Part shown: positions 1 through 46,507 of the stretch, piece after piece
Layout: every line of letters begins with the position of its first letter
Position numbering within the stretch: the stretch's first letter is position 1
DNA from: Escherichia phage AV125
Sequence record: OR352955.1
DNA: 64,000 bases
Strand: one strand, 5' to 3'
Program-made: the position numbers and the translations under genes
Notes under the pieces: model-generated
Databases searched by the model: none
Told to the model about the DNA's origin: nothing
What the model saw: only the letters and a program-made list of their open reading frames with translations

Positions 1-1
1 T

Positions 2-313
2 CATGAAGGTAATTTTATTGAAAACTTAGACGATTATGATTTTTCTCCTAGCGCGGACGAACGGATCGCCCAGGATGTAACAGCCTTTATTAATGCTAAT
101 CTTGCCGCTATCTCTGAGGCAATGAGCGACGGCGCAACAGCCAACCAGATCGGGAATGATTTACATTTTACCCGTAACGGTCACGGCGTAGGCTTTTGGG
201 ATCGCCCTGAAATATACACCACTAACACGGCGAACCGCCTAACCAATGCAGCTAAGTTTATGCCGAACGTGTCGGCTTACATTGGTGAAGATAATTTGAT
301 TTATATTGAATAA
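2..313 (+). CDS. hypothetical protein, 3' portion (gene begins upstream of window)
   Basis: Reading frame is open from position 2 with no stop until 313; track ORF 122..313 is the tail of it. Confidence 0.5.
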   Translation, partial: HEGNFIENLDDYDFSPSADERIAQDVTAFINANLAAISEAMSDGATANQIGNDLHFTRNGHGVGFWDRPEIYTTNTANRLTNAAKFMPNVSAYIGEDNLIYIE

Positions 314-319
314 AAAGTA

Positions 320-347
320 TTGACACAGATCGCCAGTGTGCTAATAT
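320..347 (+). promoter_or_regulatory. sigma70-like early promoter (TTGACA-N16-TAATAT)
   Basis: TTGACA at 320-325, TAATAT at 342-347; followed by CCACGTAGGGC element shared with promoter at 1629. Confidence 0.55.
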
Positions 348-394
348 TTACCACGTAGGGCGGCAATGGTGCCGCCGATAATGAGGAAAGTAAA

Positions 395-694
395 ATGGAA
401 ACTATCGCTATTGTTACCGTAGAAAAACTGGTTGTTGGTGATGTATTCGCGTTAATGGTGCCTAACAGCAGCAAGCTGGGCGCTTATGAAGTAATGGATC
501 ATAAAAATGAATCATTTGGCGACGGTTGCACAATGGCGGTAAAATCTTTAAAGGATGGAATCATCCGCCAGGCTAACTGGCACAAAGGGAATCAAGTCGG
601 TTTAATATCAGCTAATTTCTTGCCAGAAGAGCAAACGTTAGACCAACTATCAGGCGGTAAGACGTTAGCCGAACTACTGGAAACAGCGATCTAA
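395..694 (+). CDS. hypothetical protein
   Basis: 99-aa ORF with GAGGAAAG RBS upstream; no recognisable motif. Confidence 0.55.
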   Translation: METIAIVTVEKLVVGDVFALMVPNSSKLGAYEVMDHKNESFGDGCTMAVKSLKDGIIRQANWHKGNQVGLISANFLPEEQTLDQLSGGKTLAELLETAI

Positions 695-738
695 TCAACA
701 AAGGGGCGGCAACGCCCCACATCAGAAAGGAAAAGATT

Positions 739-975
739 ATGAGTATTGCAACAGTATTAAACGCCGTTAAAACCGCTGAATCATCCGGCTTGCATGTTGA
801 GCTTATAGATCAACCAGGTGGCGATCTCCTTGTCCAGGTTTACCCGCCGAAAGTAGGGGATGATTATTATTGGGCTTATTCTGATACGTTCGAACAAGTA
901 GACACGAAAGCGATCACGGCTTTTATTTTAAAAGCTATTGAAGAAAATAACTTTCATCATAACATCAATCAATAA
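739..975 (+). CDS. hypothetical protein
   Basis: 78-aa ORF, RBS AAGGAAAAG; preceded and followed by GC hairpins (GGGGCGGCAACGCCCC, GCGGGGCGGTAACGCCCC). Confidence 0.55.
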   Translation: MSIATVLNAVKTAESSGLHVELIDQPGGDLLVQVYPPKVGDDYYWAYSDTFEQVDTKAITAFILKAIEENNFHHNINQ

Positions 976-1029
976 ACCATAAGCGGGGCGGTAACGCCCC
1001 ATTAAACGCAATAGGAAGAGGATAGACGC

Positions 1030-1320
1030 ATGAAAAAGATGATCGCAGTAGTTGCCCTGGTTGTTGGTATTAACGCGCCTGTACTGGCTAATGAGTTGCC
1101 AGAATCCATCACGCTAACCGATATCAACGCAATAAACCGGATCGGCGTTAATTATCGCCTATGCCTTGCCGCTAAAACTTTCCAGGACGGCACGACAGAA
1201 TACCACGGATTCGAGGGTATCCGCTGCGGTGAGCTTGCACGCGACCTTAAGGAAGATCCAGACCTTGAGGCCATACCGATGACCGTAAACGGTAAAGCTT
1301 ACGTAAACCGCCAACAATGA
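1030..1320 (+). CDS. secreted or periplasmic protein (N-terminal signal peptide)
   Basis: 96 aa; N-terminus MKKMIAVVALVVGINAPVLA is signal-peptide-like; RBS GGAAGAGG. Confidence 0.55.
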   Translation: MKKMIAVVALVVGINAPVLANELPESITLTDINAINRIGVNYRLCLAAKTFQDGTTEYHGFEGIRCGELARDLKEDPDLEAIPMTVNGKAYVNRQQ

Positions 1321-1451
1321 GAAAGGTAATCATCACAATGGGGATCATAGTAGCGACACTGGCGCTTATCCCCTTCATGGTTGAATATGTGCTGATCAGT
1401 GTTGTCCTGGTAGTCAGTGACCTATTGGAAACGGTTGGCAACTGGTTTTAA
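1317..1451 (+). CDS. small hydrophobic membrane protein (44 aa)
   Basis: ATG overlaps upstream stop (ATGA); translation MRKVIITMGIIVATLALIPFMVEYVLISVVLVVSDLLETVGNWF is one predicted TM segment; below track size cut-off. Confidence 0.4.
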   Translation: MRKVIITMGIIVATLALIPFMVEYVLISVVLVVSDLLETVGNWF

Positions 1452-1628
1452 AAATAAGAAAAACAGGACTTGTTTTTGTTCTGTTTTTTGTTATACTTAT
1501 TGAACGGGCGGCACCTGGAAGCAGGGGAAGATAATCACCGGAAGACCCCGCTATATATTGATAACTAACGCCTATCAAACAACAAAACATCAAAGGAATA
1601 AACTATCAAATCTTTACAATTCTACCTA

Positions 1629-1657
1629 TTGACACCGGATCACGCTTACACTATTAT
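1629..1657 (+). promoter_or_regulatory. sigma70-like early promoter (TTGACA-N17-TATTAT)
   Basis: TTGACA 1629-1634, TATTAT 1652-1657, then ATCACGTAGGGC; near-identical to promoter at 320. Confidence 0.6.
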
Positions 1658-1703
1658 TTATCACGTAGGGCAAACAATTTTAAACGGTAAACGAGGAATC
1701 ACC

Positions 1704-2087
1704 ATGAGCAATATCATCAACCTGGCAGCGACTGTAAACGGTAAAGACTTTAACGGCGCTGTAGACCGTGATCCTATGTGGTGCTTGTCAGTGTTTAAAG
1801 GCGATCTGGTTGAAGTTAGAACAACCGAAGGTTATAGCGATGATTATAAATGCGAGATTCATTTACATAATTGGTACACGGGTAAAACTTATGCGCTGAA
1901 TCACGCGTTTATCGGGAAAATTGAATATCGCGAGATGATCGACGATGAAACGGGGCAAGATTTTAGCGAAAACGTTTATATTCGTTCCGAGACATTAGCC
2001 GAACGTTTGATCGAGAAAATGAAAGCAAAAAATAAAATTAATTTATCTCATTGGATTGATATAACAAATGATCCGGCTTATCAGTAA
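1704..2087 (+). CDS. hypothetical protein
   Basis: Track ORF 1629..2087 would overlap the promoter; internal ATG at 1704 has RBS GAGGAA (MSNIINLAATVNGK...), 127 aa. Confidence 0.55.
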   Translation: MSNIINLAATVNGKDFNGAVDRDPMWCLSVFKGDLVEVRTTEGYSDDYKCEIHLHNWYTGKTYALNHAFIGKIEYREMIDDETGQDFSENVYIRSETLAERLIEKMKAKNKINLSHWIDITNDPAYQ

Positions 2088-2103
2088 ATAACATTTCATA
2101 CCA

Positions 2104-2130
2104 GGGCGCATCAAGCGCCCTTTCTTTTTG
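2104..2130 (+). terminator. rho-independent terminator
   Basis: GGGCGC-atcaa-GCGCCC hairpin followed by TTTCTTTTT. Confidence 0.7.
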
Positions 2131-2134
2131 CCCG

Positions 2135-3648
2135 AATAATGTTGATAGCTTTCGCCTATGAAAAACCGACACAGAACAAAACTGAATAAATCACGGTATC
2201 GAGCTAATCGACCATTAAACGAATAACCATACATCCCAGGGCAACAGGCTGTTAGAGAGCTATTTAGAGCGGTTAAAATCGATCAACAACCAACAACAAA
2301 CCATCAAAAACACCCTTTTACCTCTTTTCTAGTGCAATGATAACCATTATCATCTATCATTGATTATCTATTCAATATAAGTGCATAACTATAATGTTGA
2401 TAATAGTTCGCAACAACTAACCAACAAACAACATAAAACAATAAGCAAACTAATCATAATCAAAGGAATAATAGCAAGATGACTGATAACGACAAACAAT
2501 CAAACCATGATGAATATTAAACAAGATAACGATAACACGACAAAACAACCAACTAACGAACAATAACAAACGAAACCATTAAAAGATCAACTATTAGCAA
2601 AATAGTGTATATTGCCATAATAGTGACTGAATGAAATCATTACAAAACGAATCATTCCAAGGATCATCATTAGCACGCTACGCCGGACACGTAGCGAGCT
2701 AATAATAAGCCAACTACACCCCAACAATCATAACCATCGGTGATGGTTATTTCTTGTTACTGCGTAGCTTGCAATAATTGCAAGCGTAATGACGCTTACA
2801 CTTATTGCGCTGGCTTATTATTAGCATTATATGTAATTACTAAGATCATAACATTAGCGCAATAACAATAATCATTGTAATAGTTACAAGATGAGATCAT
2901 TAGCAAGATGAATAATTGCACGTAGCAACATGAGCGAATAGCGACAGGTTGCATAGTGTGCACATAGTGTATAAACATACAAGAAAATAAAGGCTAATCT
3001 TTTGGGGGCGAATACTATCGCTACGCGATATGTTGAGCACCTTCTCTTAAACGTAAATAAAATCAGAATAATCTTGATTTATTTTAGTTTTTATGTTAAT
3101 AAACGTTTAAATAATAATCATTCTCATATAAATAATAGTCTGCTTGTCATGAGCGGGATCAGTTGACAATGTTCCGTCATATGATGAAGTTGCCAAACCA
3201 TTGATAAATAAGTGTTTGTGTGATTTATAATCAAGTGGCCCACCTTGTCGCTACGTTGGTATGAGCCTTGCATAAGTCATTGAATACGAATGATAATTAT
3301 TCTCATTCGTATGATATTTGGGAATTGTCGCTGCGTGGACCTGACGGCCCGAAAATTCGCGTTAAGCACTTCTTACGTATGCGCCATGATTTTTGCCATA
3401 TGATATTGATTCTATTAGATATTCTTGCCATGATTGCCATGAAACAGGGTGTCCCGAAATAATCTCTCCCCGTAGATATTTTGGGTTACTTTTTATACAA
3501 GAGTGGGGTGTCAAAAATAATCGGTATATATAGGATAATTGATAGGAATCCCCTATGATAATTCGATTGTAATTCCCTAAGATTGATCGTATGATGTTGG
3601 TGATTGATGATTGCCATGAAAGATGGCTAACGATGAGAGGAGATTGTC
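2135..3648. other. 1.5-kb ORF-free region with strand compositional skew and short direct and inverted repeats
   Basis: No plausible ORF; 2280-2620 is A/C-rich and G-poor on the plus strand; recurring ATTAGC, TATGAT(A/G)TTG, GATTGCCATGAAA and GGGTGTC-N3-AAATAATC motifs; palindromes at about 2675-2705 and 3285-3325. Confidence 0.6.
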
Positions 3649-11986: not shown

Positions 11987-12202
11987 ATGTGGATTGTCCG
12001 TCTTAAATATGATGGTCCAGGTTCTTGGGTGCATAATGTTTGTGGTTGCGATTCCGAAGAAGCAGCACACAAAGCAGGAAGAGCAGTAAGTGCCTTCTAT
12101 AATGACAAACCTCTTTGTTTAGAGATGGCAGGTGTGGTGAGCATGAGTATGTTTGAATACTACTCCTATGATATTAAAAAACATGAAGGAGAGTGGAAAT
12201 GA
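11987..12202 (+). CDS. hypothetical protein
   Basis: 71-aa ORF. Confidence 0.5.
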   Translation: MWIVRLKYDGPGSWVHNVCGCDSEEAAHKAGRAVSAFYNDKPLCLEMAGVVSMSMFEYYSYDIKKHEGEWK

Positions 12203-12519
12203 GCGAAGAACTATTAACATTTTACCGCACGTATTTGGCATGGTTGGAAGCTGGTGCTCCTGAAGGTGAACCGTTCACCCGTTGCACAGGTTTGTGCTCT
12301 AACCTCTATGATTTTTACGATATGGGGGAAAGCGAACGATACGAACCTGTACTGGATGAAATGCATGAGCAGTTCTACCGCAAAGATTTGGTTATGGTAT
12401 TGCCTTTCAACAGTAATTTTGGAAAGTACACCTTAGAAGCGGAAAAAAGCCGCTGTCATTTGAATGTGGATCGTGTGAACTGGGTAAAAGAACGTGTAGC
12501 AGAAGAAATAATTGGTTGA
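12199..12519 (+). CDS. family A small protein (paralog 5 of 7)
   Basis: Start at ATG 12199; FYRTYLAWLEAGAP, TGLCSNL, VLPFN, RVNWVKERV. Confidence 0.7.
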   Translation: MSEELLTFYRTYLAWLEAGAPEGEPFTRCTGLCSNLYDFYDMGESERYEPVLDEMHEQFYRKDLVMVLPFNSNFGKYTLEAEKSRCHLNVDRVNWVKERVAEEIIG

Positions 12520-12573: not shown

Positions 12574-12987
12574 ATGAAAAAATTTATTTGCACCCGTTCC
12601 ACTAACAGTGATATCCTTGTAGGTAAGGTTATCAAAGGAGAACTCTTCCATGCAAATGGTAAGAAATATATCCTGCTGAAAGATTCTTTCAACGGGGAAT
12701 ATCCGCGCTGCACTTTCTTTAATTACAACACTCCATTTGCTTTAGAAGGAGATGCTTGGGAATGGGCTGAACTCAATCCTTGTTGTGAAGAAGAAGAATC
12801 TATGTTCTTAGGTTTAAACGTTTACCGTGTAGATTACACCATGTGCGGAGCGGAACATTCTGTTCGCGTAGAAGCCGAATCCAAACTACAAGCACCTTTC
12901 AAGGCAGGATTGACTTTGGGTCATTGTTTGGCAAACATTGAAGATGTTGTGATCCAAAGAGTTGTTTTAGAGAAAGAGGCTATTTGA
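12574..12987 (+). CDS. hypothetical protein
   Basis: 137-aa ORF, RBS GAGAGGAGA. Confidence 0.55.
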   Translation: MKKFICTRSTNSDILVGKVIKGELFHANGKKYILLKDSFNGEYPRCTFFNYNTPFALEGDAWEWAELNPCCEEEESMFLGLNVYRVDYTMCGAEHSVRVEAESKLQAPFKAGLTLGHCLANIEDVVIQRVVLEKEAI

Positions 12988-13041
12988 CAGAAGACGGTAC
13001 AATATTTAAAATATAAAGATTAACCACAAAAGGAGAGAAAC

Positions 13042-13341
13042 ATGCAAGTTGAAGACCTGATCAAGATTCTGAATAAAGCCAAAGAGAAGGGTGCTATCAA
13101 AGACTGGAAACGTGAAACAAGTGAAGACCTATCTCACTGTTGCCGAGAATTTTACATCGAAGGTATTGCTGACGATCATTATATTATCGAATGGTATATC
13201 AACTTAATGACTCTTAAGCACGGTTCGTTTGAGGTTTGGTTTGATGATATTGATGTAAATGGTTTTCATCCTGGCTATAAAATCGCTATGCAGTTATCTT
13301 ATCGTAGAGAAGTTGTAGCACATTTGGGTTTACATAACTAA
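13042..13341 (+). CDS. hypothetical protein
   Basis: 99-aa ORF, RBS AAAGGAGAG. Confidence 0.55.
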   Translation: MQVEDLIKILNKAKEKGAIKDWKRETSEDLSHCCREFYIEGIADDHYIIEWYINLMTLKHGSFEVWFDDIDVNGFHPGYKIAMQLSYRREVVAHLGLHN

Positions 13342-13351
13342 GGAGAAAAGA

Positions 13352-13675
13352 ATGCAAGCAGTTGTTAACGAAGCTATTATGAACTTATCCTTTTTGTTAG
13401 CTGGTTTAGGAGGTGTTCTCATAGGTTTGGCTCTTATCTGGTGTATTCGTCGATTAATCGGGTACCGACAAAAAGGTGTTTCATGTTTTGTATCTTACAA
13501 TTTTACAACTGCTTACAGCAATGAGGTTGGATCTGGCAATGCTCAAGCATTTTTACCAACATATCCTCCTACGGTGGAAGATATTCGAAACTTGGAAGTA
13601 GAACTTATGGGACTAAGTGATAACTATACATCTCTAGTTATTCAAAATATTTTTCGACTAAAACAGGAGGCGTGA
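13352..13675 (+). CDS. membrane protein
   Basis: 107 aa; LSFLLAGLGGVLIGLALIWCI is one predicted TM segment. Confidence 0.5.
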   Translation: MQAVVNEAIMNLSFLLAGLGGVLIGLALIWCIRRLIGYRQKGVSCFVSYNFTTAYSNEVGSGNAQAFLPTYPPTVEDIRNLEVELMGLSDNYTSLVIQNIFRLKQEA

Positions 13676-13888
13676 ATGAAGGTACATTACCCTCATCCCT
13701 TTGATCCTAAAAACAAAGCCGTAATTCTTCGTCAGTGGCAACGGGTTTGTCGTACTAAATGTCCAATCAATAGCCCACACAATGTAGACAAGGACTATCT
13801 TGGGACATTTGTTGAATACACTTACATAGACAAAAACAAGCGTAAACAACATGTCGAGGAATACTGCTTAAGAGTAGAATGGCTGTAA
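13676..13888 (+). CDS. hypothetical protein
   Basis: 70-aa basic ORF. Confidence 0.45.
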   Translation: MKVHYPHPFDPKNKAVILRQWQRVCRTKCPINSPHNVDKDYLGTFVEYTYIDKNKRKQHVEEYCLRVEWL

Positions 13889-13890
13889 AT

Positions 13891-13919
13891 AATAAATACC
13901 TTGACAAGTGTTTATTCGT
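13891..13919 (+). promoter_or_regulatory. sigma70-like promoter upstream of recombinase gene
   Basis: TTGACA 13891-13896, 17-bp spacer, TAAAGT 13914-13919. Confidence 0.5.
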
Positions 13920-13958
13920 TTTGTAAAGTGAGGATACAGCAATGGTTTAGGAGTGGTT

Positions 13959-14630
13959 ATGAAAAAGTTTGTTGTTTACAGTCGTCTTTCTAAACAGAAA
14001 AAAGGTGAGGCACAATATGGTATGGAGAGCCAAGAGAACGATATCCGTTACTTCTTAGACTCTGTGCCTGATGCGGAAGTTATTGGTCAATTTTCTGAAT
14101 ACTATTCGGGTAAGGGCGATTGGAAGCAACGTAAGGAACTGGTTAAAGCGGTTGAAATGTGTAAAGCTACCGGAGCAACTTTATTGGTAGCTAAAGTTGA
14201 CCGCTTGGGTCGTAACAACGCCTCCGTAGCAACTCTTCTAGAAATGATCGATGTTAAGATAGCCATCATGCCAGACGCAGATAAAATGGTTATACAGCTT
14301 CTGTCTGTTCTGGCTGAACAAGAAGTTAGAGGTATTGCTGATCGTATTAAAAAGGGTCTTGCTGTAGCAAAAAGCAAAGGTGTTTTATTAGGCAGTGCTA
14401 ATCCTAAAACTGCCGCTGCACGTAGAAAAGGAAAAATGGAATACAACTCTGTTAAAGCAGACGCTTTTGCAGAGACATTCCGTGAACGTTTGGAGATCCT
14501 TAGAGATTTAAATACACCTTACAAAACTATTGCTGAAAAATTCAATAGTAAGAAAATAGCAACAGCACGTGGTGGTAAATGGGATGCTAAAACTGTTTCT
14601 CGTTTGTGTGCCAGACTGAACATTAAATAG
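13959..14630 (+). CDS. serine recombinase (resolvase/invertase family)
   Basis: YSRLSKQ near N-terminus (catalytic Ser region), VAKVDRLGRN (DRLxR motif), C-terminal HTH-like TIAEKFN...TVSRL; 223 aa. Confidence 0.6.
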   Translation: MKKFVVYSRLSKQKKGEAQYGMESQENDIRYFLDSVPDAEVIGQFSEYYSGKGDWKQRKELVKAVEMCKATGATLLVAKVDRLGRNNASVATLLEMIDVKIAIMPDADKMVIQLLSVLAEQEVRGIADRIKKGLAVAKSKGVLLGSANPKTAAARRKGKMEYNSVKADAFAETFRERLEILRDLNTPYKTIAEKFNSKKIATARGGKWDAKTVSRLCARLNIK

Positions 14631-14638
14631 GAGAGGAT

Positions 14639-15061
14639 ATGAAACAAGAAAATGAATCTGTAGATCACTTAATCATGCTGTCAGCCCTTTTTGCCGGATG
14701 GGACGTATTTTTTGAAAATTTGTTCAATTCTGCTACAGATGGTTCCGATTTTATGCGCCAGTTTAAACGACGAACTGTTGAGGACTATGCTTTCTATTCA
14801 GGTCGGATTGAAAAAGGTTACGAAGATACAAATACAACACTCACCATTAAAGTTTTAGATGTGATGTTTAGTGTTATAGATGCTATCGACGAAAGTCTTC
14901 CGATCCTAGACAATTGTAATACGAAAGCCTATGTTTACAAAATAGCTCGTGCTTATGTGTCTGCAAACAGTTGTCTTCTTTCCACCCAGATTGCCGTGAA
15001 CAATCTTGCCAACTTGTTTGACGAAGGAGAAACTTTTTATGACAATCGATTTGAAGTGTAA
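14639..15061 (+). CDS. hypothetical protein
   Basis: 140-aa ORF. Confidence 0.5.
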   Translation: MKQENESVDHLIMLSALFAGWDVFFENLFNSATDGSDFMRQFKRRTVEDYAFYSGRIEKGYEDTNTTLTIKVLDVMFSVIDAIDESLPILDNCNTKAYVYKIARAYVSANSCLLSTQIAVNNLANLFDEGETFYDNRFEV

Positions 15062-15404
15062 GAGGATTCTTTTAGATTTCTATAATAATTGGTTAGAACA
15101 CCTCCGTCTCTTTCCAAGAGAAAGTGGTTACGCTGATGTTGGCTTATGCCGAGGTCTGCGTATGTATATAAGTGATGAATTTCGGTCCGAGCATTCTTTA
15201 GCATATTCTGTTTATGGTATGCAATTAGCCAGTTTTGAAAACGCTGGCTTAGATACAACTTTCCCATTTAACACAGCAAAATCTTTTGAGCAAGAGTGTA
15301 AGGAAAAACGTTGCATGTTTAATGAAAAACGTGTACAGTGGGTTAAGGATCGAGTTAAACAATTGGAACAAGAGTTGGATTTCTTTTATGACGAGGCAGA
15401 ATAA
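15039..15404 (+). CDS. family A small protein (paralog 6 of 7)
   Basis: Start at ATG 15039 (RBS GAAGGAGA); FYNNWLEHL, VGLCRGL, TFPFN, RVQWVKDRV. Confidence 0.65.
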   Translation: MTIDLKCKRILLDFYNNWLEHLRLFPRESGYADVGLCRGLRMYISDEFRSEHSLAYSVYGMQLASFENAGLDTTFPFNTAKSFEQECKEKRCMFNEKRVQWVKDRVKQLEQELDFFYDEAE

Positions 15405-16292: not shown

Positions 16293-16298
16293 TAGTTG

Positions 16299-16322
16299 CA
16301 CCCCGTTCTGCGGGGTGTTATT
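16299..16322 (+). terminator. stem-loop, possible terminator
   Basis: CACCCCG-ttctg-CGGGGTG hairpin then T-rich run. Confidence 0.5.
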
Positions 16323-16343
16323 GTATACGTAAAGGAGGCGCTA

Positions 16344-16703
16344 ATGTATTACACTGAAGACTACATATTGTATAACTTTTTTAAAGGCTGGTTGGAATGG
16401 GCGGAAAAAGCTCCTGTTGGAGATTGTGTTTTTCCTTGGGACTCTCGTCAAGGTTTGTGTCGTTGTTTGGAAGACTGGCTTATAACCACAAGCTACAATT
16501 CAGAGACTAAGAAATCTACATCAAAGAGACTAAAAATGTTATTTGAAGAAGATGGTTTAGATCCGATTTATCCTTTCGGTGCTGAAAGCTTCCACAATGG
16601 TCTTTTTCTTGGCACTCAACATTATGACAAAGATCGCGTAGATTGGGTAAAAGAAAAGGTAGCACAGTATGAATGGGGGCTAAGACTTATCATCGTTGGT
16701 TAG
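16344..16703 (+). CDS. family A small protein (paralog 7 of 7, most divergent)
   Basis: Start at ATG 16344 (RBS AAAGGAGG); FFKGWLEWAEKAP, QGLCRCL, IYPFG, RVDWVKEKV. Confidence 0.65.
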   Translation: MYYTEDYILYNFFKGWLEWAEKAPVGDCVFPWDSRQGLCRCLEDWLITTSYNSETKKSTSKRLKMLFEEDGLDPIYPFGAESFHNGLFLGTQHYDKDRVDWVKEKVAQYEWGLRLIIVG

Positions 16704-29272: not shown

Positions 29273-29863
29273 TCAAATTATTAACGAAACCGCATGACTA
29301 AATCTTGGTTCAGATATAACCTCTGCTACAGTCACATATGTATCGTGCAGCCAAAAAGATTCTACTCTACAAACACAAATACCGTTGATAATGAAATCTA
29401 CACAGGCTTTATTATTTTCGCACACTTGTTGACTATAAACAACCCCTAAAGAGTCATAAAGTGATCTCACTGTTGCTACCATTTCATCTGTTTCGTCTTC
29501 CTGTGAAACAAAGAAAACGAATACAGACAAGTTATTAGCGAAAGTATTGCTATTCTCTACTTCAACCGACTTACAAGGTAAAAAGGAGTAATATTTACCG
29601 TTAGGTATCAATTTCGCCTCAACCTGGTTAAGTATGCTTTGAGATGGTTTTGTTACATAAAAAAGATTTTCTGTTGGGTTTTCAACATTACTCCTTACTA
29701 TGCAACGAGTGGGGTTCGAAGGATCAAAAACATGATCGAAATCGACACACACAGGTAAGTTAACAACTTTAAACTTTTTGCTAAGAATGCTTACTGCTGT
29801 AAAAATCAAACCAGCATTTATTTTGCCAGTGAAAGTTGAACGCATAACTACTCCTCGGATCAT
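29273..29863 (-). CDS. hypothetical protein
   Basis: 196-aa ORF. Confidence 0.55.
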   Translation of the reverse strand: MIRGVVMRSTFTGKINAGLIFTAVSILSKKFKVVNLPVCVDFDHVFDPSNPTRCIVRSNVENPTENLFYVTKPSQSILNQVEAKLIPNGKYYSFLPCKSVEVENSNTFANNLSVFVFFVSQEDETDEMVATVRSLYDSLGVVYSQQVCENNKACVDFIINGICVCRVESFWLHDTYVTVAEVISEPRFSHAVSLII

Positions 29864-30054
29864 TCTACCAAAGAGAATTCCGCCTCTTCCAGGTAGATTA
29901 CAGACCTTGTTGCATGATATTTAACGCTCCAGAAATTACCTTCGCGCCGTAAAAGTATCTCATTCACATCAAGATTGCTTAGAAAAACCATATAACTTAA
30001 AGCTTGTTGACGCGTTGAGAATTGTTTCTCTAAAAGTTCTTCTCCGCTCTGCAT
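29860..30054 (-). CDS. hypothetical protein
   Basis: 64-aa ORF. Confidence 0.45.
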   Translation of the reverse strand: MQSGEELLEKQFSTRQQALSYMVFLSNLDVNEILLRREGNFWSVKYHATRSVIYLEEAEFSLVE

Positions 30055-30070
30055 AATCCCTCCTTAAAAT

Positions 30071-30090
30071 ACTCCCTCCGAAAAGGGAGT
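30071..30090 (-). repeat. intergenic stem-loop
   Basis: ACTCCCT-ccgaaa-AGGGAGT. Confidence 0.5.
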
Positions 30091-30099
30091 ATAAGTATA

Positions 30100-30303
30100 T
30101 CACGTAGTTGTTATGTTGTCTTCTTGGATACTAGAATCCACTTCTGCAAACATATCTTCTGCACTGTAATTATTTCCAGTCCAGCGTGATAAAAGGATAG
30201 CACCAATCTCTTTTGCATGAGATTCGGACTCCGCATAAACGTTAGTCCCAGTGTCACCTTTTTTCTTTTCATGTGCATAAATGCAGTAATAATTGTAAGC
30301 CAT
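30100..30303 (-). CDS. hypothetical protein
   Basis: 67-aa ORF. Confidence 0.45.
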   Translation of the reverse strand: MAYNYYCIYAHEKKKGDTGTNVYAESESHAKEIGAILLSRWTGNNYSAEDMFAEVDSSIQEDNITTT

Positions 30304-30539
30304 TAATCTTCCCAGTCATTGCCCTCGGTAGAGTGAACTAAAGCTCGCACGATACCACCGTAATCTACTGCCTGATTTGCAGCATGTTCGGCATAAACTT
30401 CAATGGCTTTTTTGAAGAAAAGAGCAGTAGCTGCTTCAATATTATCCATTTCGCCATCTACGTCAGTAGAAAGTGAAAGGTTGAGGCTTTCATCTACTTC
30501 ATCAAAATCAATAGCCACTGTCATAATTAGTTTACCCAT
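30303..30539 (-). CDS. hypothetical protein
   Basis: 78-aa acidic ORF. Confidence 0.5.
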   Translation of the reverse strand: MGKLIMTVAIDFDEVDESLNLSLSTDVDGEMDNIEAATALFFKKAIEVYAEHAANQAVDYGGIVRALVHSTEGNDWED

Positions 30540-35950: not shown

Positions 35951-36748
35951 CTAAAGAAATCCACCCTTTTTGAAAGCAATTTCTTCCAGGCACGCAATCT
36001 TCAATCCTTGACAGTTCTCAATAGTCTGCACGAATTGACCAGCTTCCATCAGACTGGCGTGTGTTCCTGTGTCAAGCCAAGTAAATCCTCGTCCGAGAAC
36101 TTCTACTTGTAACTTCCTGTCTTCGAGGTAGCTGCGATTGATATCGGTGATCTCCAGTTCTCCACGCGCGGAAGGGGTTACTTCTAATGCACGTTGAATA
36201 ACAGAGTTATCATAGAAATATAAACCTGTGACAGCATAATCTGATTTAGGATTTTCAGGTTTCTCTTCAATAGAAATAACTTGACGATTACTCCCAAATT
36301 CAACCACACCGAATCGTTCAGGATCTTTCACCAAACACCCGAAGATACAAGCTCCGCCCCAAACATCTACCATCTCACTAGCGTTAATCAGTAGTTTACC
36401 AAAGCTTTGTCCGAAGAATAGGTTGTCACCTAAAATAAGAGCAACAGAGTCTTCTCCGATAAAATCTTTACCGATGATGAAAGCGTCCGCAAGACCTCGT
36501 GGCTCGGATTGGATTGCGTAAGTGAGTTTTATCCCAAACATAGACCCATCTCCAAGAAGATGCTCAAAGTCTTCCTGATCGCCTGGTGTGGTGATGATTA
36601 AGATATCCTTAATGTCAGCCAACATCAATACCGATAAGGGGTAGTAGATCATGGGTTTGTCATACACAGGGAGCAATTGCTTGCTCACACTGCGTGTTAC
36701 CGGATGAAGGCGGGTTCCACTTCCTCCCGCCAAAATAATACCTTTCAT
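35951..36748 (-). CDS. rmlA: glucose-1-phosphate thymidylyltransferase
   Basis: [18 protein letters not shown]...[18 protein letters not shown] signature. Confidence 0.9.
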
Positions 36749-36756
36749 AACCCTCC

Positions 36757-37749
36757 TTAAATCTTCTTACTCCACCATTGAGGGTTGTTTAAGTACCATT
36801 CAATCGTTGAGTAGAGATCTTGTTCAAATGTAGAGTTTGCACTCCAACCCAGTTCAGACTCTATTTTAGAAGGATTGATTTCATAACGCAAGTCATGTCC
36901 TTTACGATCTTCAACAAAAGTTATCAAGTTGGAAGAAGGGTAGGTTCCTGCTTCTGGATGTACAGCATCCATGTAGTCACAAACCATATAGATGATCTCC
37001 ATATTGGTTTTGGGATTACGTGTTCCAACATTATACGTTTGACCTGGTTCTCCACCTGTTGCCACTTGAAGAATAGCTCGCGCATGATCCTCAACAAAAA
37101 GCCAGTCTCGCACCTGATCGCCTTTACCATACACCGGAATCTCTTTATTCGTCAAGATACTTGTGATGATTTTTGGGATCAGCTTTTCTGGATGTTGATA
37201 AGGTCCAAAGTTATTGGAGCAGTTGGTTATCACAACAGGTAAACCGTAGGTACGGTACCAAGCTTTCACAAGATGGTCAGATGCTGCCTTAGACGCACTG
37301 TACGGGCTTGAAGGGGCATAAGCTGTCTCTTCGGTAAAGGGAACGCCAGAGTCTGCCATATCGCCGTACACTTCGTCTGTGGAGACATGTACGAACATCT
37401 TAAGTTTATTTTTTGGGAGGAGCCTTGCAGCTTCCAATAAATTGTATGTACCAATAATATTGGAGTCGATGAAAACTCGTGGATTCTTGATAGAATTATC
37501 CACATGACTCTCTGCCGCTAAGTGAATGATGAAATCGGGATTGCACTCTACTACTAAACTTTTGACCTGGGTTTCGTTTGCCAAATCTGTTATGCTTAGT
37601 TTAACGTGAGTGATATCGCCTACATTCTCAATATCTGCTGCATAGCCCATCTTATCAACGACAAAAACTTCGTTATTGGGATCTTGACAAAGAGAGCGCA
37701 CCACGGCACTCCCAATAAAACCAAGACCACCTGTTACCAGATAGCGCAT
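36757..37749 (-). CDS. rmlB: dTDP-glucose 4,6-dehydratase
   Basis: [17 protein letters not shown] Rossmann, SDR catalytic YxxxK region, 330 aa. Confidence 0.9.
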
Positions 37750-37758
37750 CAGTTCTCC

Positions 37759-38085
37759 TTACCAGACATGTTGAGAAATAATAGTTTCCGTTTTAATGTT
37801 ATATTTTTCAAGTAGCTTTGCATAGGCTTCTTTTGCATTCTCATTCAATTGCTCAAGATCTACAGCTATGCTTCCTTCTCCGCCTTCTAAATCAAGGCCA
37901 TATATGCAATAAGACTCATCCGCATCGTAGAAAGGAGAGATGCGGCTTAAGTCAAGACCTTCTTGTAAGAACCAGTTAAAATCTCCGTCAAATTCTTCTT
38001 CAATTCTAGGATCTTCTCCTACAGCCTCTTCCCACTTATTTAAAGGTGCACCCTGTAACATACGCCATTCGATATCAATACCCAT
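37759..38085 (-). CDS. hypothetical protein
   Basis: 108-aa acidic ORF. Confidence 0.5.
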   Translation of the reverse strand: MGIDIEWRMLQGAPLNKWEEAVGEDPRIEEEFDGDFNWFLQEGLDLSRISPFYDADESYCIYGLDLEGGEGSIAVDLEQLNENAKEAYAKLLEKYNIKTETIISQHVW

Positions 38086-38239
38086 TTTTCATCTCCTCCT
38101 CTTCTTGAGCAGCTTTAATAATTGCTTCATAAATATCGTAAGCAATGCCTCCACAACATCTAGCTTCGAAAGCTATTGCTTCTGCAATGTGATCTGTTAA
38201 TTCTCGTGGAATGCGAACATACTCTTTTTCACTCTCCAT
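38081..38239 (-). CDS. small hypothetical protein (52 aa)
   Basis: MESEKEYVRIPRE...; overlaps neighbours by a few nt; below track cut-off. Confidence 0.3.
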
Positions 38240-38381
38240 CTTCTACCTCCAACCCTTCTTTTTCAAAGACTACTACTCGTCCCTCACCATGACAATTCAG
38301 GCAAGGAAATGTTACCATAATTTCCACTTCCATCTGTCCCGTCCCACCGCACACAGGACAAAAAATAAGTTTTTCAGCCAC
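38229..38381 (-). CDS. small zinc-ribbon protein (50 aa, GTG start)
   Basis: RBS AGGAGGAATA then GTG; CPVCGG ... CLNCHG. Confidence 0.35.
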   Translation of the reverse strand: MAEKLIFCPVCGGTGQMEVEIMVTFPCLNCHGEGRVVVFEKEGLEVEDGE

Positions 38382-38590
38382 TATTCCTCCTTAATTATTT
38401 CAAATTTGGCAACACCATTTACAATAATATGACCACAAGACATAACTCCTAGCCAAGGATCGCCGTTTTTCTTCAGGCGTTTACCGAATACATCACAAAA
38501 ACCATTCTTCATTTCAGAGGCTTCATAAGAAACCCCTTTATCAAAAACGTCTTTGAATGTGTCGATTATACCAACACATTTCAAAATCAT
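38381..38590 (-). CDS. hypothetical protein
   Basis: 69-aa ORF. Confidence 0.45.
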   Translation of the reverse strand: MILKCVGIIDTFKDVFDKGVSYEASEMKNGFCDVFGKRLKKNGDPWLGVMSCGHIIVNGVAKFEIIKEE

Positions 38591-39675
38591 TCGAAGTCAA
38601 GCTCCTCATCATCAGAGAGATCTTTGTTAGCTGAATTCAATTTGTAGTTAGTTAACTGAATCTCTTGGGCTGCTGACTGAATCAAATCAGGATTCAACCA
38701 TTTTTCCATCCAAGCTAAAGGGCTATGTTTAGGTGCTTTAAACTTGGCTTTCATTTTCAATCGACGATAAATAGGAGCAGCATTGAAATAAACCCACTGT
38801 TTAGACAATTCGGCGTTAAGACCTACAATAAAACGACCTTCACTAAACAGGTAGTCACACCACTGTTCCTCTTGTTCAACAACAGTGTCAAGAATCAAAG
38901 TCAACTCTTCAATGTTGTCTTCGTAAATTTTACGCCAAATTGGGTCATGCATCAATGCATCAATTACAGCATAATCCATCTTAACATGCAAGATTTCATC
39001 TAGCATAATTTTCTGGATCAGTTTACAAGCTCCAACAAACAGTTGTTGTTCTGCCATAGCAAAAGTAGCAGAGAAGGAGGATATAAACTGAATACCTTCT
39101 AACCCAATCAGGGCTACCATCCCTTTAAGAATCAGCAGTCGAAGTTCATCGTTAGCTTCAATCAATCCTAGAGCATACTTATGACCAGCTTCTTCCAACT
39201 GACCCATGATATCAGCAATGATACCCATACGATTGAAAATTTTATCATTAATCATAATCTGATTGATGACTTCGATGGGATCTGGAGTACATTGACGGAT
39301 TATTTCAGAATACGTTAACGCATGGAGAACTTCCATTTCACTCTGCTTCATCATCATAGCACAGGCTTCATTGTTACTCAAGAATGGAGAGAACAAAGTG
39401 ATGATTGATTTTGCAAGAGAATCATTTTCCCATTGGAACGATAAGTTTTTAATCATAACATCATAGTTGTTTTTAGAACAAGCTACGAAATCTTTACGTG
39501 TCTGATCCAAGTTAACTTCGTTTTCATCCCAATCTTGTGCTTTTTGAAGTTTGTAGAGTTTGTGCATTTCTGGATAAGTCACGTTAACAGAATCAAAGAT
39601 CCCTAATTGCTCCCCCAAAAATACTGGATATTTCCCTGTCTTGTAAACTTCGTTGTGTAAATTAATTGCTGCCAT
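38587..39675 (-). CDS. nrdB: ribonucleotide reductase class Ia small subunit
   Basis: 362 aa, ferritin-like helices with conserved Glu/His iron ligands, adjacent to nrdA. Confidence 0.85.
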   Translation of the reverse strand: MAAINLHNEVYKTGKYPVFLGEQLGIFDSVNVTYPEMHKLYKLQKAQDWDENEVNLDQTRKDFVACSKNNYDVMIKNLSFQWENDSLAKSIITLFSPFLSNNEACAMMMKQSEMEVLHALTYSEIIRQCTPDPIEVINQIMINDKIFNRMGIIADIMGQLEEAGHKYALGLIEANDELRLLILKGMVALIGLEGIQFISSFSATFAMAEQQLFVGACKLIQKIMLDEILHVKMDYAVIDALMHDPIWRKIYEDNIEELTLILDTVVEQEEQWCDYLFSEGRFIVGLNAELSKQWVYFNAAPIYRRLKMKAKFKAPKHSPLAWMEKWLNPDLIQSAAQEIQLTNYKLNSANKDLSDDEELDFE

Positions 39676-39697
39676 TTAAAATTCTCCTCAATAAAAG

Positions 39698-39711
39698 GGG
39701 GCCGAAGCCCC
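39698..39711 (-). repeat. intergenic UUCG-tetraloop hairpin
   Basis: GGGGCCGAAGCCCC upstream of nrdB start. Confidence 0.6.
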
Positions 39712-39718
39712 TTTATAT

Positions 39719-40375
39719 TTAGCCTCGAAATACTGTTTTTGTTTCCGCCAGGTGCCAATAGAAATCCGCCTTGTTTACAAGAGTGTTGTACACCTCTGGA
39801 TAAAAATGTTCTTCCTCTTTGTAACGATCCGCTGTTTCCCTGATTGACTTAGCTTTATCCTTTAGCCAAGCGAAGTGTGCCTCTTCCTCTGTAGCGAAGT
39901 AGCCTAAATGTTTACCTTTACTCCCAGAAGCTTTGGCATAAATCTTACCATCTTTCCTAACATGTGCTCCTAGTAAGTATTTTCTTTCATACCTCTTAGC
40001 ATAACTTAAGAGTGTATTTATGTAAGGAGGAACAAACCTACAATATTCAGGACAATAAACAGTATTTCCTTCAAGAACAAGATCTTTATCTAAAACAAAG
40101 CCTTCAACATTGTGTTCTTGATACCAGTTATCAAAGTTTGAAAAGGTGAACCAAGCATCACACACAGTAACATCTTTATAACCTGGTCTAATGTTTTCCA
40201 TACGATATGCACGATTAAACATGCCTTTCCAAGCTGCATAGGAAGGGTCTATGAATGTATTAACCCTTTTCCCATTGATAACACCACCTTCCCACAATCT
40301 ACGTTCAACATCCACAATCAAGGGGATTTCTCCCCTCTCTGTGAGAACGGTAACTTTACGTTTACCCTTCTTCAT
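39719..40375 (-). CDS. free-standing homing endonuclease-like protein with AP2 domain, inserted between nrdA and nrdB
   Basis: KGKHLGYFATEEEAHFAWL is an AP2-type DNA-binding signature typical of phage homing endonucleases; placement mirrors T4 mobE. Confidence 0.6.
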   Translation of the reverse strand: MKKGKRKVTVLTERGEIPLIVDVERRLWEGGVINGKRVNTFIDPSYAAWKGMFNRAYRMENIRPGYKDVTVCDAWFTFSNFDNWYQEHNVEGFVLDKDLVLEGNTVYCPEYCRFVPPYINTLLSYAKRYERKYLLGAHVRKDGKIYAKASGSKGKHLGYFATEEEAHFAWLKDKAKSIRETADRYKEEEHFYPEVYNTLVNKADFYWHLAETKTVFRG

Positions 40376-40386
40376 CTGTTCTCCTA

Positions 40387-42630
40387 CTACATTTTACAGG
40401 CACTACACCCTTCGTCTTCAGAATCTTCTTGTGCTAAAGAATCTGCTGATTTTGTTCTACTATTAAGGTAATACAATGATTTGCCACCCAGTCTAGCAAA
40501 ATTCAGAATAAACTGCATCTCAGCTTTCACGGATAAACGTCCACCTACCAATTTAGAATAATCTAGCCAAGAATCACAAGAAATTCCTTGGTCAGTAAAC
40601 TTGGTAAAGATACCATACATTTCTGCAAGGTCTTTAGCCGGAGTATCCCAGGCAGATTGGTAGAACATTTTCAGTTTTTCGTAGTCTGGAACAATAAATA
40701 ATACACTACCTTTCTGACTTTGTTTATACATAATGGTATCACGAACAGGATACAGAGAGTTAGTAGTATTGCTTACCAAACTGCTGGACTCATTAGGTGC
40801 AATAGCAGCCAATACACTGTTACGGATACCACCTTGTTCAATGATTTCAGCACGTAAGCCTTCCCAGTCCATTTTAAGATCAAAATTACCGATACTATCT
40901 ACTGTTTTAGCATAGGTGTCAATTGGTAGCCAACCTTGAGGCCATTTGGTCTTATCGATCCATTCTGCATTACCTTTTTCCTTAGCCAGACGCAGAGAGG
41001 CTTTTGCCAACCAAAAGTAATGACGTTCTGCAAGTTCATGCATTAATTTTTTAGCATAAGCATCTGAATAATTTACAAAATTACTTGCCAAATAATGCGC
41101 TAAGTTTGTAATACCTACACCAATAGATCTACGTGCTTTAGCAGTTATTTCGTTATGTTTAAATGGATAATCCATTGTTTCAATAACGTTGTCAATTGTC
41201 AATACAGTGTAGTATGCAACATCCTCATATTCTTCAGGTAAGACACGACCAGCGACAATAGAAGATAAGAAGCATAAAGCCAATTCTTGATCTTCTGTAT
41301 TCTCACCAGTAAAGAGATCCGGCATATTGTGGAAAGCTTTAGTTGGTAAGAAGATCTCTTGACACAGGTTTGATTGATACACCGTATCCAGGAAAGGTGT
41401 ATGGTTGTTAACGTTGTCAGCAAAGAACATGTAAATACGTCCTGTTTCTGCACGTTGAACAATAATCTCTGTCAGAAGATCACGAGCCTTAACAAATTTT
41501 TTCTTAATGCGACGACGACTTACTTTGTCATAAACTGCATCAAACTCTTCTTCACTTTTATATAAAGCTTCATAAAGTTCAGGAGCATCATCACAACTAA
41601 CTAACATCCAGTCTTCGTTTTTTGCTGCTCGACGCAAGAACGAACGGTTAACAACAATAGAATAATCTAGTTTATCCACTCGTTTATCTATAGGTGTTGT
41701 TGGATTCTTCAGTCGAATCAGATCGTCGAAGTCTGGTTCAAGTATGGTAAAGGTAACTGTAGCACTACCTCCACGGCTTGCTTGCTTTGAAGCTCCAACA
41801 CTATCTTCCATCCATTTCAGATACGGAAGAAGACCACCGTGAATAATACGATTATTCTTAACACCTTGACCTGTGGCACGAGTTTGAAGATTAACACCAA
41901 TACCTGCGTTATTCAACGTATACTCATGAGCTAAGTAATTAGCAATGGCTAAAGACTCTGCCGTATCGTCTGCACGGAATAAACAACAAGACGCACTTCC
42001 TTTGATTGGAGTTCGTAGAGTTGTCAGATACGGCGATGGCAGATTAATCTTAAGATCGCTAACATAAGTATAAAGTTTTTTAATATCTTCTATACGGCGT
42101 TCTTTTGGTTGGATCTCCATAACCTTCATTGCGATACCAATGAAAAGAAACTGTGGAGACTCATGCACCACATCGTTTACTGCATCTCGAATAAGATATT
42201 TATCTACCATCTGACGTAAAACAGAATAACCATAAGTTAGATTTTTATTATGCTTTACAATCTTACCGATTTCTTTGATCTCTTCATCGGTATAATCCAT
42301 TTTAGCCCAATGTCCACGTTCTACCATATCATGATAAAAGGTATTCAGTGAAGGGATACTGTGGTATCCCCCATGAGCCTGTTTGTAAATCATACCCAGA
42401 AGAAGTCTTCCTGCCATATCACTGTAAGCTTGTGTTTTCTTGTCAATACACGCTGCAATCATTGCTTTATGCAGATCACGTGTAGACACACCGTCATAAC
42501 ACCGCTTCACAGCTTCTAATTCAATTTCAGACCAGTTTAGTTTACCTGCTGCAAATTCAGACCACTTACGAAGTTTTTCTGGATTAAACTCCTCTGTCTT
42601 ACCATTAGATTTAGTTACAAAACGAATCAA
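40387..42630 (-). CDS. nrdA: ribonucleotide reductase class Ia large subunit
   Basis: 747 aa, N-terminal ATP-cone (VTKSNGKTEEFNPEKL), conserved catalytic Cys-containing core. Confidence 0.9.
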   Translation of the reverse strand: MIRFVTKSNGKTEEFNPEKLRKWSEFAAGKLNWSEIELEAVKRCYDGVSTRDLHKAMIAACIDKKTQAYSDMAGRLLLGMIYKQAHGGYHSIPSLNTFYHDMVERGHWAKMDYTDEEIKEIGKIVKHNKNLTYGYSVLRQMVDKYLIRDAVNDVVHESPQFLFIGIAMKVMEIQPKERRIEDIKKLYTYVSDLKINLPSPYLTTLRTPIKGSASCCLFRADDTAESLAIANYLAHEYTLNNAGIGVNLQTRATGQGVKNNRIIHGGLLPYLKWMEDSVGASKQASRGGSATVTFTILEPDFDDLIRLKNPTTPIDKRVDKLDYSIVVNRSFLRRAAKNEDWMLVSCDDAPELYEALYKSEEEFDAVYDKVSRRRIKKKFVKARDLLTEIIVQRAETGRIYMFFADNVNNHTPFLDTVYQSNLCQEIFLPTKAFHNMPDLFTGENTEDQELALCFLSSIVAGRVLPEEYEDVAYYTVLTIDNVIETMDYPFKHNEITAKARRSIGVGITNLAHYLASNFVNYSDAYAKKLMHELAERHYFWLAKASLRLAKEKGNAEWIDKTKWPQGWLPIDTYAKTVDSIGNFDLKMDWEGLRAEIIEQGGIRNSVLAAIAPNESSSLVSNTTNSLYPVRDTIMYKQSQKGSVLFIVPDYEKLKMFYQSAWDTPAKDLAEMYGIFTKFTDQGISCDSWLDYSKLVGGRLSVKAEMQFILNFARLGGKSLYYLNSRTKSADSLAQEDSEDEGCSACKM

Positions 42631-42646
42631 CTTCTCCTCCCTATTA

Positions 42647-42901
42647 TTAATGCATATTCAAAACATCTACATCATAACCGAACTTCATTTCATTAAAAAG
42701 TCCATTAGCATATAGAAAACCTTCAAAATGAGTTATGTCATCAAACCCTTTTGCTTTTGCTCGACGGTCTGCTTCTTGTCTTTTAGGAGATAAACGTTTT
42801 GAAGTGTCTAGAATTACAGTTACATTACAACCAACAGTTTCATCAAAATAGACTTCGATTTCACAGCCTTCATATTTATTATCAGTCATTGTCCCTCTCA
42901 T
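42647..42901 (-). CDS. hypothetical protein
   Basis: 84-aa ORF. Confidence 0.45.
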   Translation of the reverse strand: MRGTMTDNKYEGCEIEVYFDETVGCNVTVILDTSKRLSPKRQEADRRAKAKGFDDITHFEGFLYANGLFNEMKFGYDVDVLNMH

Positions 42902-43341: not shown

Positions 43342-43406
43342 CTCCTCCCAGTATTGTGCTATATTATACTAAAACTAATACTAAAGTCAATAACTATTTA
43401 AACAGA

Positions 43407-44405: not shown

Positions 44406-44414
44406 TTTTTCTCC

Positions 44415-45023: not shown

Positions 45024-45059
45024 AAAACCTCCTCTCTCTTTTAGTATAGTTATCTTATA

Positions 45060-45635: not shown

Positions 45636-45802
45636 TATTGCTCACCTTTTTAGCTGTATATTCCCCTGGTGGGATATTGTGTTTAAAAAACAAAAGGCGG
45701 TCTAACCCCGCCTTGCACATTGTTTCTGGAATAGTCAAAGTTAGTAAAAGTTTATCACCTTTTCGGTTGAATATTTTATAAACTTCTCCTGCTCCATATT
45801 GT

Positions 45803-46466: not shown

Positions 46467-46507
46467 ATTTTTGTCAATAAAAAAGGGAGCAATAAGCTCC
46501 CTGATTA

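Follow-up and report, generated by a model that had tools for sequence, protein, structure and literature searches.

A conserved and apparently active small serine recombinase in the early region of Phapecoctavirus phages

Among the small early genes of Escherichia phage AV125 (OR352955.1) lies a gene for a site-specific recombinase, which raises a biological question of modest reach: why does a virulent phage retain an apparently active enzyme of this kind under purifying selection? We addressed this question in a stretch of 64,000 nucleotides of the phage genome (hereafter the window), in which the locus comprises the following features.

13901..13929, + strand: sigma-70-type promoter (consensus scan; conserved in relatives)
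13949..13953, + strand: Shine-Dalgarno sequence AGGAG, 5 nt ahead of the ATG (sequence reading)
13959..14630, + strand: serine recombinase coding sequence, 223 aa plus stop (ORF list and sequence reading)
13959..14384, + strand: catalytic domain and E-helix, aa 1-142 (alignment, AF2 model, Foldseek and profile searches)
14403..14615, + strand: putative C-terminal helical DNA-binding domain, aa ~149-219 (five predicted helices; resembles the first part of PF07508)

The reading frame runs on the + strand from an ATG at 13959 to a TAG at 14628-14630. A longer listed frame begins at an alternative GTG at 13953, which overlaps the Shine-Dalgarno sequence, so that the ATG is the likely start. The initial annotation, made from the sequence alone, had proposed a 223-aa serine recombinase, and this is borne out by a Pfam Resolvase match and by the active-site residues, which are kept; the two motifs it quoted, YSRLS and DRLGRN, are found in the protein as VVYSRLSKQ and VDRLGRNN. 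About 60 Phapecoctavirus records in GenBank encode an identical protein (100%), under labels that vary between serine recombinase, resolvase, recombinase family protein, DNA invertase and hypothetical. The gene is already annotated in public records and, as a sequence feature, is real but ordinary. We found no experimental work on the recombinase or its orthologues. In the literature we found a single comment, which conjectures that the protein keeps “concatemers as single genome” (PMC10282059), and an earlier genome announcement for two phages of the same group stated that a specific recombinase is absent (PMC5374246). What we add here is its core status in two genera, the purifying selection, the differing genome positions, the promoter in every lineage examined, the integrase-like C-terminal domain and the plasmid relatives.

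The phage had at first been taken to be T4-like, which it is not: the locus is 95-99.9% identical to 64 GenBank records of Phapecoctavirus (phAPEC8-like, Stephanstirmvirinae). All 64 of these records carry the gene (the recombinase locus and the tail module each match 64 records at at least 95% identity), and a 57%-identical orthologue is present in 56 of the 56 matched records of phi92-like phages (Justusliebigvirus). Phi92 gp053 and the orthologues of phAPEC8, ESCO13 and Ro121c4YLVW have the same length, domains and active site, and are labeled “DNA invertase”, “resolvase” or “serine recombinase”. Within the genus, comparison with phage DE16 revealed 10 synonymous and no non-synonymous differences in the gene, and omega between lineages is 0.07-0.25. 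The recombinase is thus a core gene that purifying selection maintains in the strictly lytic Stephanstirmvirinae. Elsewhere, homologues turn up patchily in large lytic phages unrelated to this group, which infect Vibrio, Shewanella, Microcystis and Bacteroides. Vibrio phage ICP1 carries a 30%-identical homologue within a replaceable block in only about 8 of 85 isolates, indicating that the homologue is dispensable at least in this phage.

Profile searches assign the first 142 residues to the serine recombinase superfamily: Pfam PF00239 (Resolvase) matches aa 5-142 with an E-value of 5.2e-18 (66 bits, cut-off 23.3), and PHROG 125, labeled “DNA invertase”, matches with an E-value of 2.6e-32. In an alignment of 31 homologues ranging from 78% to 31% identity, Tyr7, Arg9, Ser11, Arg58, Asp81, Arg82 and Arg85 are invariant; we take these to be the counterparts of Y6, R8, S10, R45, D67, R68 and R71 of gamma-delta resolvase. 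An AlphaFold (AF2) model built from this alignment has a mean pLDDT of 89 and predicts the mixed alpha/beta core of a resolvase, a long helix (residues 109-139) and, at the C-terminus, five short helices. A Foldseek search of the PDB with the model matched Sin and gamma-delta with probability 1.0, as well as the catalytic domains of TP901-1 and IS607-type proteins. In a search of PDB sequences with the family profile, the catalytic domain matches Gin, gamma-delta, Tn3 and Sin, with Gin as the best match (E 1.6e-17). Neither of two findings that would speak against the initial annotation, a non-recombinase fold or loss of the catalytic serine, was made: the fold is that of a recombinase, and Ser11 is kept. 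The protein is thus a small serine recombinase that, judged by its intact active site, is apparently catalytically competent.

The C-terminal part is less conventional. A C-terminal helix-turn-helix had been proposed at the outset; a helical DNA-binding domain is indeed predicted, but it is not the HTH_7 of Hin and gamma-delta and looks instead like the beginning of the corresponding region in large integrases. Up to an E-value of 1, Pfam reports for the protein just PF00239 and a weak match to PF07508 (Recombinase) at aa 187-216 (E 0.003, 18.2 bits against a cut-off of 21.1), so that no HTH_7 is detected. The PF07508 match spans only positions 19-48 of the 102 profile positions, and PF07508 is on record for several homologues. 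Past the E-helix, the only PDB entries that align with the family profile are the Bxb1 and SPbeta (SprA/YokA) integrases. The Gly-Arg arm of invertases and resolvases, GR(P)R, is replaced in the alignment of 31 homologues by GVLLGS/A, for example GVLLGSANP. Moreover, none of the curated NCBIfam equivalogs (YneB, XisF, Mpi, CcrA/B) scores above its cut-off; YneB is best with 32.5 bits against 175, and Mpi reaches 22.6 against 272. A profile search had been suggested to separate invertase from resolvase subfamilies; it places the protein in the recombinase superfamily but in neither subfamily. The architecture is therefore best described as a resolvase core with what appears to be a truncated, integrase-type helical DNA-binding domain. 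Such proteins are not rare, since a profile search of 1.84 billion representative proteins returned 3,852 clusters at E-values of at most 1e-30; the best 150 of these 3,852 clusters are mostly full-length, at 215-240 aa.

Comparison with well-known recombinases places the protein between two groups. With gamma-delta/Tn3 TnpR, Sin, Gin and Hin it has in common the fold of the catalytic domain and E-helix, the active-site residues and a similar size class. In contrast to them, its C-terminal domain is longer (five helices) and not HTH_7, the GR(P/K)R arm is missing, and no res or hix/gix sites, transposase or invertible segment was detected adjacent to the gene. With the large serine integrases (Bxb1, SPbeta SprA, phiC31, TP901-1) it shares the E-helix and the next helices, which align with the start of the recombinase domain, as well as the motif IA..LN..G..T..G..W....V, and Bxb1 and SprA give the longest Foldseek alignments. 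However, the phage protein lacks the remaining recombinase domain, the zinc-ribbon and the coiled-coil, has 223 aa compared to 450-600 aa, and no att sites or directionality factor are evident for it. Compared to the IS607-type transposases, which carry an N-terminal MerR-like HTH, the order of domains is reversed, with the catalytic domain N-terminal and the DNA-binding domain C-terminal. Between the window protein and those of the phiWec181 type, the C-terminal domain diverges far more than the catalytic domain, and the window and phi92-like proteins resemble each other in the last C-terminal helix. Such a divergence pattern matches what would be expected if DNA specificity co-evolves with the recombination site.

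The neighbours of the gene are small phage early ORFs. The promoter is intergenic and lies about 30 nt upstream of the recombinase start codon, with a -35 TTGACA (13901-13906), a 17-nt spacer and a -10 TAAAGT (13924-13929), matching the consensus at 10 of 12 positions in the scan. A scan of 12 kb yielded 40 sites with at least 9 of 12 matches compared to 32 +/- 6 expected from shuffled sequence, so that a consensus match alone proves little. The element is nevertheless unchanged across three aligned Phapecoctavirus genomes, including UP17 and Schickermooser. The homologues in phiWec181, Citrobacter phage Tr1, alia, FKP3, FBKp34 and Vibrio phage ICP1 likewise have a TTGAC-type -35 and a -10 upstream; in these six divergent lineages the spacer is 16-18 nt and the promoter lies 25-45 nt before the start codon. 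A sigma-70-type promoter is thus found directly upstream in seven of the seven lineages examined, despite two different genome positions. Further similar promoters are found in the early block at 12516, 12984 and 17934. No terminator separates the recombinase gene from its neighbours, and the next ORF begins 8 nt past the stop codon; lacking an intervening terminator, the promoter would also serve downstream genes. The gene had been credited with its own promoter, which holds insofar as the TTGACA-17-TAAAGT element exists and is conserved, but it is one of several in the block and not private to the recombinase.

An imperfect dyad overlaps the -35 of the gene's own promoter. Together with the placement among early regulatory-type small genes, it could be read as a sign that the protein has lost recombination and acts as a DNA-binding regulator. 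This appears highly improbable, as the catalytic residues are invariant down to 30% identity, which is unexpected had catalysis been lost.

The recombinase gene does not occupy the same position throughout the group. Whereas Phapecoctavirus, phiWec181 and Tr1 have it in the early block of the left arm, the phi92-like phages carry it in the nucleotide-metabolism arm, flanked by two 204-nt ORFs and preceded by the genes for PhoH, an HslV-like peptidase and a methyltransferase. Synteny of phiWec181 with the window is partial, and its recombinase is 75% identical compared to 39-48% for the neighbours. The position used in phi92-like phages can be located in the window:

30056..30099, - strand: orthologous “empty site” (window 29800-30360, - strand, compared with phage alia L003 3700-4900)

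At this site the homologues of the two flanking ORFs are direct neighbours, and the gap between them has nothing but a terminator-like hairpin (30071-30090). The arrangement suggests that a unit of about 740 bp, promoter plus ORF, moved once between the two positions. This relocation would be old, as synonymous sites are saturated between the genera. The 57% amino acid identity of the recombinase between genera is about the divergence of one neighbouring ORF when the two are compared by eye.

A movable unit of this kind could be an accessory cassette that acts on host DNA, prophages, plasmids or co-infecting elements, or simply a mobile selfish gene. Besides the different intergenic positions of the ~740 bp in sister genera and the cleanly empty alternative position in the window, its patchy spread in unrelated lytic phages and its accessory status in ICP1 point in this direction, as do relatives at the edges of prophage-like elements and the fact that no phage-borne site was found. 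On the other hand, the gene is present in 100% of the records, at a fixed position in each genus and under strong purifying selection, whereas homing-type genes show presence/absence polymorphism; its divergence between genera fits one old relocation better than ongoing mobility; and neither a match in PADLOC (defence/anti-defence) nor a candidate host site was found. We regard a role of this kind as possible, if somewhat unlikely.

An inversion switch had been suggested at the outset; the protein would then be a DNA invertase, like Gin, Cin and Hin or like the Bacteroides “master invertase” Mpi, that flips a segment and thereby switches host range or expression. The “DNA invertase” label of PHROG 125, the best PDB profile match to Gin and the weak match to the Mpi family (22.6 bits against 272) speak for it. 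We searched for its sites locally and genome-wide. Within window 12900-15200 only short repeats at chance level were found. The whole genome of the related phage ESCO37 (98-99% identical), assembled from three pieces and compared with itself by BLAST, holds no inverted repeats of at least 22 bp besides terminator hairpins, a floor that leaves room for crossover sites as short as 12-14 bp; apart from terminator hairpins, its long repeats are direct ones, formed by promoter/stem-loop units of the right arm. The search for inverted repeats that had been proposed as a check thus gave no invertase-type pair near the gene or, at this length, across ESCO37. Two identical 22-bp hairpins of ESCO37, at 19149 and 23884, were considered as a crossover pair and rejected, since they are palindromic terminators that end opposed transcription units; the hairpins are inverted in both genera, and the 4.7-kb segment between them is never flipped in about 60 genomes.

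Orientation was compared over window 1-25000 and the 25-kb tail module, with the remaining ~100 kb screened for repeats. Among about 60 Phapecoctavirus genomes no opposite-strand segment was found in window 1-25000 or in the 25-kb tail/baseplate/tail-fibre module. Each record is collinear as one place, except for records split at their ends and for four WPEC records (WPEC1, 2, 4 and 6), whose multiple places we attribute to scrambled assemblies instead of rearrangements. Where tail modules differ, tailspike genes have been inserted or exchanged, with no inversion. With neither an inverted-repeat pair near the gene or genome-wide nor an orientation polymorphism in these genomes, the inversion switch is left without support. 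In line with this, the protein lacks HTH_7, has GS/GA in place of the GR of the minor-groove arm, and reaches no curated invertase model. Overall, an invertase role seems improbable.

A resolvase site, by comparison, is expected once per genome, and we therefore searched for conserved single-copy dyads. The phages of this group have short direct terminal repeats, of 328 bp in Schickermooser (PMC6563267) and 342 bp in BME3 (PMC12210895), so that any site would occur in direct repeat within concatemers. A 329-bp repeat could be verified at either end of the Schickermooser record; it corresponds to window ~3034-3362, which puts the recombinase gene about 10.9 kb from the left genome end. The 70 bp upstream of the gene contain the promoter and one imperfect dyad, with no repeated subsites and no convincing res-like array, and none of the neighbours indicates an association with a transposase or plasmid replicon. 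A scan of a whole related genome for dyads with 12-bp arms and spacers of 0-6 bp gave 8 overlapping matches at five loci, mostly terminator-like, and no family of sites. The 13-mers repeated in both ESCO37 and BME3 are only Fur-box-like motifs, ribosome-binding sites, terminators and promoter/stem-loop units. Two palindromes were found just outside the terminal repeat:

2730-2750: palindrome ATAACCATC-GGT-GATGGTTAT, kept in BME3 with a compensatory change in both arms
2767-2785: palindrome GCTTGCAAT-A-ATTGCAAGC, kept in BME3

The 329-bp repeat itself, which we also considered as a location of the site, carries Fur-box-like palindromes. All of these fit crossover sites poorly, because their length is odd while the stagger of cleavage is a symmetric 2 bp. 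Binding of terminase, an initiator or Fur to these odd-length palindromes is at least as likely, and the conserved blocks of the terminal repeat fit a host regulator better than a crossover site.

Full-length homologues with 35-40% identity are encoded on 124 plasmids, 104 of which are non-mobilizable, including 5.8-7 kb replicons of Klebsiella, Synechococcus, Marinovum and Phaeobacter; the small non-mobilizable plasmids range from 5.8 to 30 kb. The ~220-aa recombinases of Klebsiella pIIIF7SW-P1_2, Marinovum pMaD11 and the 6.4-kb plasmids of Synechococcus elongatus share the two-domain architecture. A lone serine recombinase on a small plasmid replicon is normally a multimer resolvase. Two such plasmids have 650-680 bp of non-coding sequence upstream of the gene, with room for res, compared to 70 bp in the phage, and in the Klebsiella plasmid a 16-2-16 dyad lies 35-65 bp before the start codon of the recombinase. 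Resolution of replication products, the second function that the initial annotation had considered, is thus possible and, by analogy with these full-length homologues on small plasmids, mildly favoured.

Our best guess, to which we would assign a probability of roughly one in three, is that the protein performs resolvase-type recombination on phage DNA early in infection. Host RNA polymerase would transcribe the gene early, and the recombinase would find its substrate in the phage DNA itself, at a site of which each genome unit has one copy. Copies of this site, directly repeated in multimeric or terminally repeated replicative DNA, would be recombined to give monomeric circles early in infection, and no invertible segment would be flipped. 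We favour this role because of the plasmid relatives, because the tests for inversion and integration were negative, and because replicating DNA contains genome units in direct repeat. Against it speak the lack of a recombination site in the searches above, the dispensable homologue of ICP1, the identity of only 35-40% on which the analogy with plasmids is built, and the lack of an evident reason for a lytic phage to resolve multimers. Moreover, resolution of concatemers would counter packaging in a phage with direct terminal repeats, so that the activity would have to be restricted to the early phase. The main rival to the resolvase-type reading is a once-mobile cassette that acts on the DNA of the host or of competing elements; inversion is a weaker one. 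A further-reaching proposal is that this strictly lytic subfamily with its direct terminal repeats depends on an early, host-transcribed recombinase that circularises or monomerises the incoming or early-replicating DNA at a single-copy site near the genome end, or that serves as an early take-over function by rearranging DNA of the host or of rival elements; we consider it decidedly doubtful. If true, circularisation would amount to a Cre/loxP-like step, which to our knowledge is not described for virulent myoviruses.

A different use of a resolvase or integrase would be in a hidden lysogenic or carrier state, with the protein serving for integration or plasmid maintenance. Small serine recombinases can integrate elements, and relatives of the phage protein are found beside prophage ends: in Pseudomonas and one other bacterium they border prophage-like elements. 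However, 5,426 complete E. coli genomes, searched together with their plasmids, gave no match to the 1.3-kb locus, which makes an integrase or plasmid-prophage role very unlikely, to the point of being almost negligible. The closest plasmid homologues are less than 40% identical and come from other bacteria, no repressor or partition module adjoins the gene, and the phages have been described as lytic and without prophage matches (PMC10282059, PMC5374246). The distinction is of practical relevance, as phAPEC8-like and phi92-like phages are widely considered for therapeutic use, and in screening pipelines any recombinase raises a flag as a possible marker of lysogeny. For the present gene this flag is eased, since it is a core gene of lytic phages, is never found integrated in E. 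coli genomes and is not of the integrase type.

Two minor observations concern individual sequences. In a prophage-like element (L023) that encodes a 43%-identical homologue, a nearby family of palindromes was set aside as a candidate site, as it consists of direct repeats fused to terminators, and nothing similar was found in the phage genomes. The copy of the gene in the Schickermooser record carries six small deletions within ~200 nt, and the record has other “partially similar” ORFs; we did not take these frameshifts as a sign of dispensability, and they probably reflect sequence quality.

Comparison of Phapecoctavirus records showed that the record of phage Schickermooser carries a 329-bp direct terminal repeat at both of its ends, the counterpart of which lies at ~3034-3362 of the window, and many GenBank records start at the position corresponding to either ~3036 or ~3289. 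Thus, the physical ends of the genome are joined within the window. Three palindromes of the form AATGAKAATnATTMTCATT lie in or next to the terminal repeat:

2336-2354, palindrome
3110-3128, palindrome
3289-3307, palindrome

These three copies fall inside 1 kb, compared with 0.49 expected for the entire 64 kb. The consensus of the Fur box of E. coli is GATAATGATAATCATTATC, and the palindromes agree with it at ~15 of 16 core positions. Similar Fur-box-like palindromes are also present in the terminal repeat of the phi92-like phage BME3 and form a triplet at 135988-136063 of ESCO37, a related genome 98-99% identical to the window. Based on its sequence, this cluster may reflect iron/Fur control of the phage terminal region or a use of Fur by that region.

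Two further palindromes, each present in a single copy, are located ~250-300 bp outside the terminal repeat:

2730-2750, 9-3-9 palindrome ATAACCATCGGTGATGGTTAT
2767-2785, 9-1-9 palindrome GCTTGCAATAATTGCAAGC

BME3 keeps both, and there the two arms of the first differ in a compensatory manner. Proteins of packaging, replication or recombination may bind at these candidate sites.

The right-arm early region (136.7-148 kb of ESCO37, i.e., 36700-48000 of its piece L011, and partly 1-3000 of the window) consists of a run of very short ORFs with a repeated unit, ...TAAGATGTATCACATAGGGCGG-loop-CCGC..., in front of each. This unit is kept in BME3 and, judged from its sequence, looks like a promoter −10 box followed by a stem-loop. 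Scattered across the left-arm block are paralogous early proteins of ~110-135 aa:

12193-12519, early paralogue
15006-15404, early paralogue
16296-16703, early paralogue

Their C-terminal end reads ...RV.WVKE(R/K)V, and several copies of such paralogues are also found in BME3 and in phage phiWec181. Directly upstream of the small serine recombinase gene lies another short ORF:

13676-13888, DUF7202 ORF of 70 aa (full-length Pfam match, E = 2e-37)

In several records this ORF is labelled 'ABC transporter ATP-binding protein'; with only 70 aa, it cannot be one.

A prophage-like element (L023) encodes a 43%-identical homolog of the small recombinase together with a neighboring large serine recombinase. 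It harbors three direct copies of the repeat TTATTTAG(TA)GCGTCTGAAATA-N6-TATTTCAGA:

L023 587-649, repeat copy
L023 1021-1049, repeat copy
L023 1905-1974, repeat copy

The copies sit downstream of large unannotated ORFs, and two of the three are fused to a terminator.

In the Schickermooser record, the recombinase gene has six small deletions (1, 1, 7, 1, 2 and 7 nt) within ~200 nt (L012 11300-11560). The sequence on either side of the gene hardly differs from the window, and the annotated CDS covers only the 3′ 387 nt. Either the sequence is of low quality here, or this viable phage carries the gene as a pseudogene. The records of WPEC1, WPEC2, WPEC4 and WPEC6 show interleaved structural, tRNA and replication genes in an order unlike that of all relatives (L021, positions 45000-83000 of WPEC1) as well as many ORFs of 90-150 nt, and are probably mis-assemblies.

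A ~1.9-kb stretch that is lacking in ESCO37 includes two ORFs assigned by family matches:

35951-37749 (-), NTP_transferase family (RmlA-like) ORF and GDP-mannose 4,6-dehydratase/epimerase family (RmlB-like) ORF

Reductase and epimerase genes adjoin the two ORFs, and together these genes would provide AV125 with a full dTDP-rhamnose pathway set.
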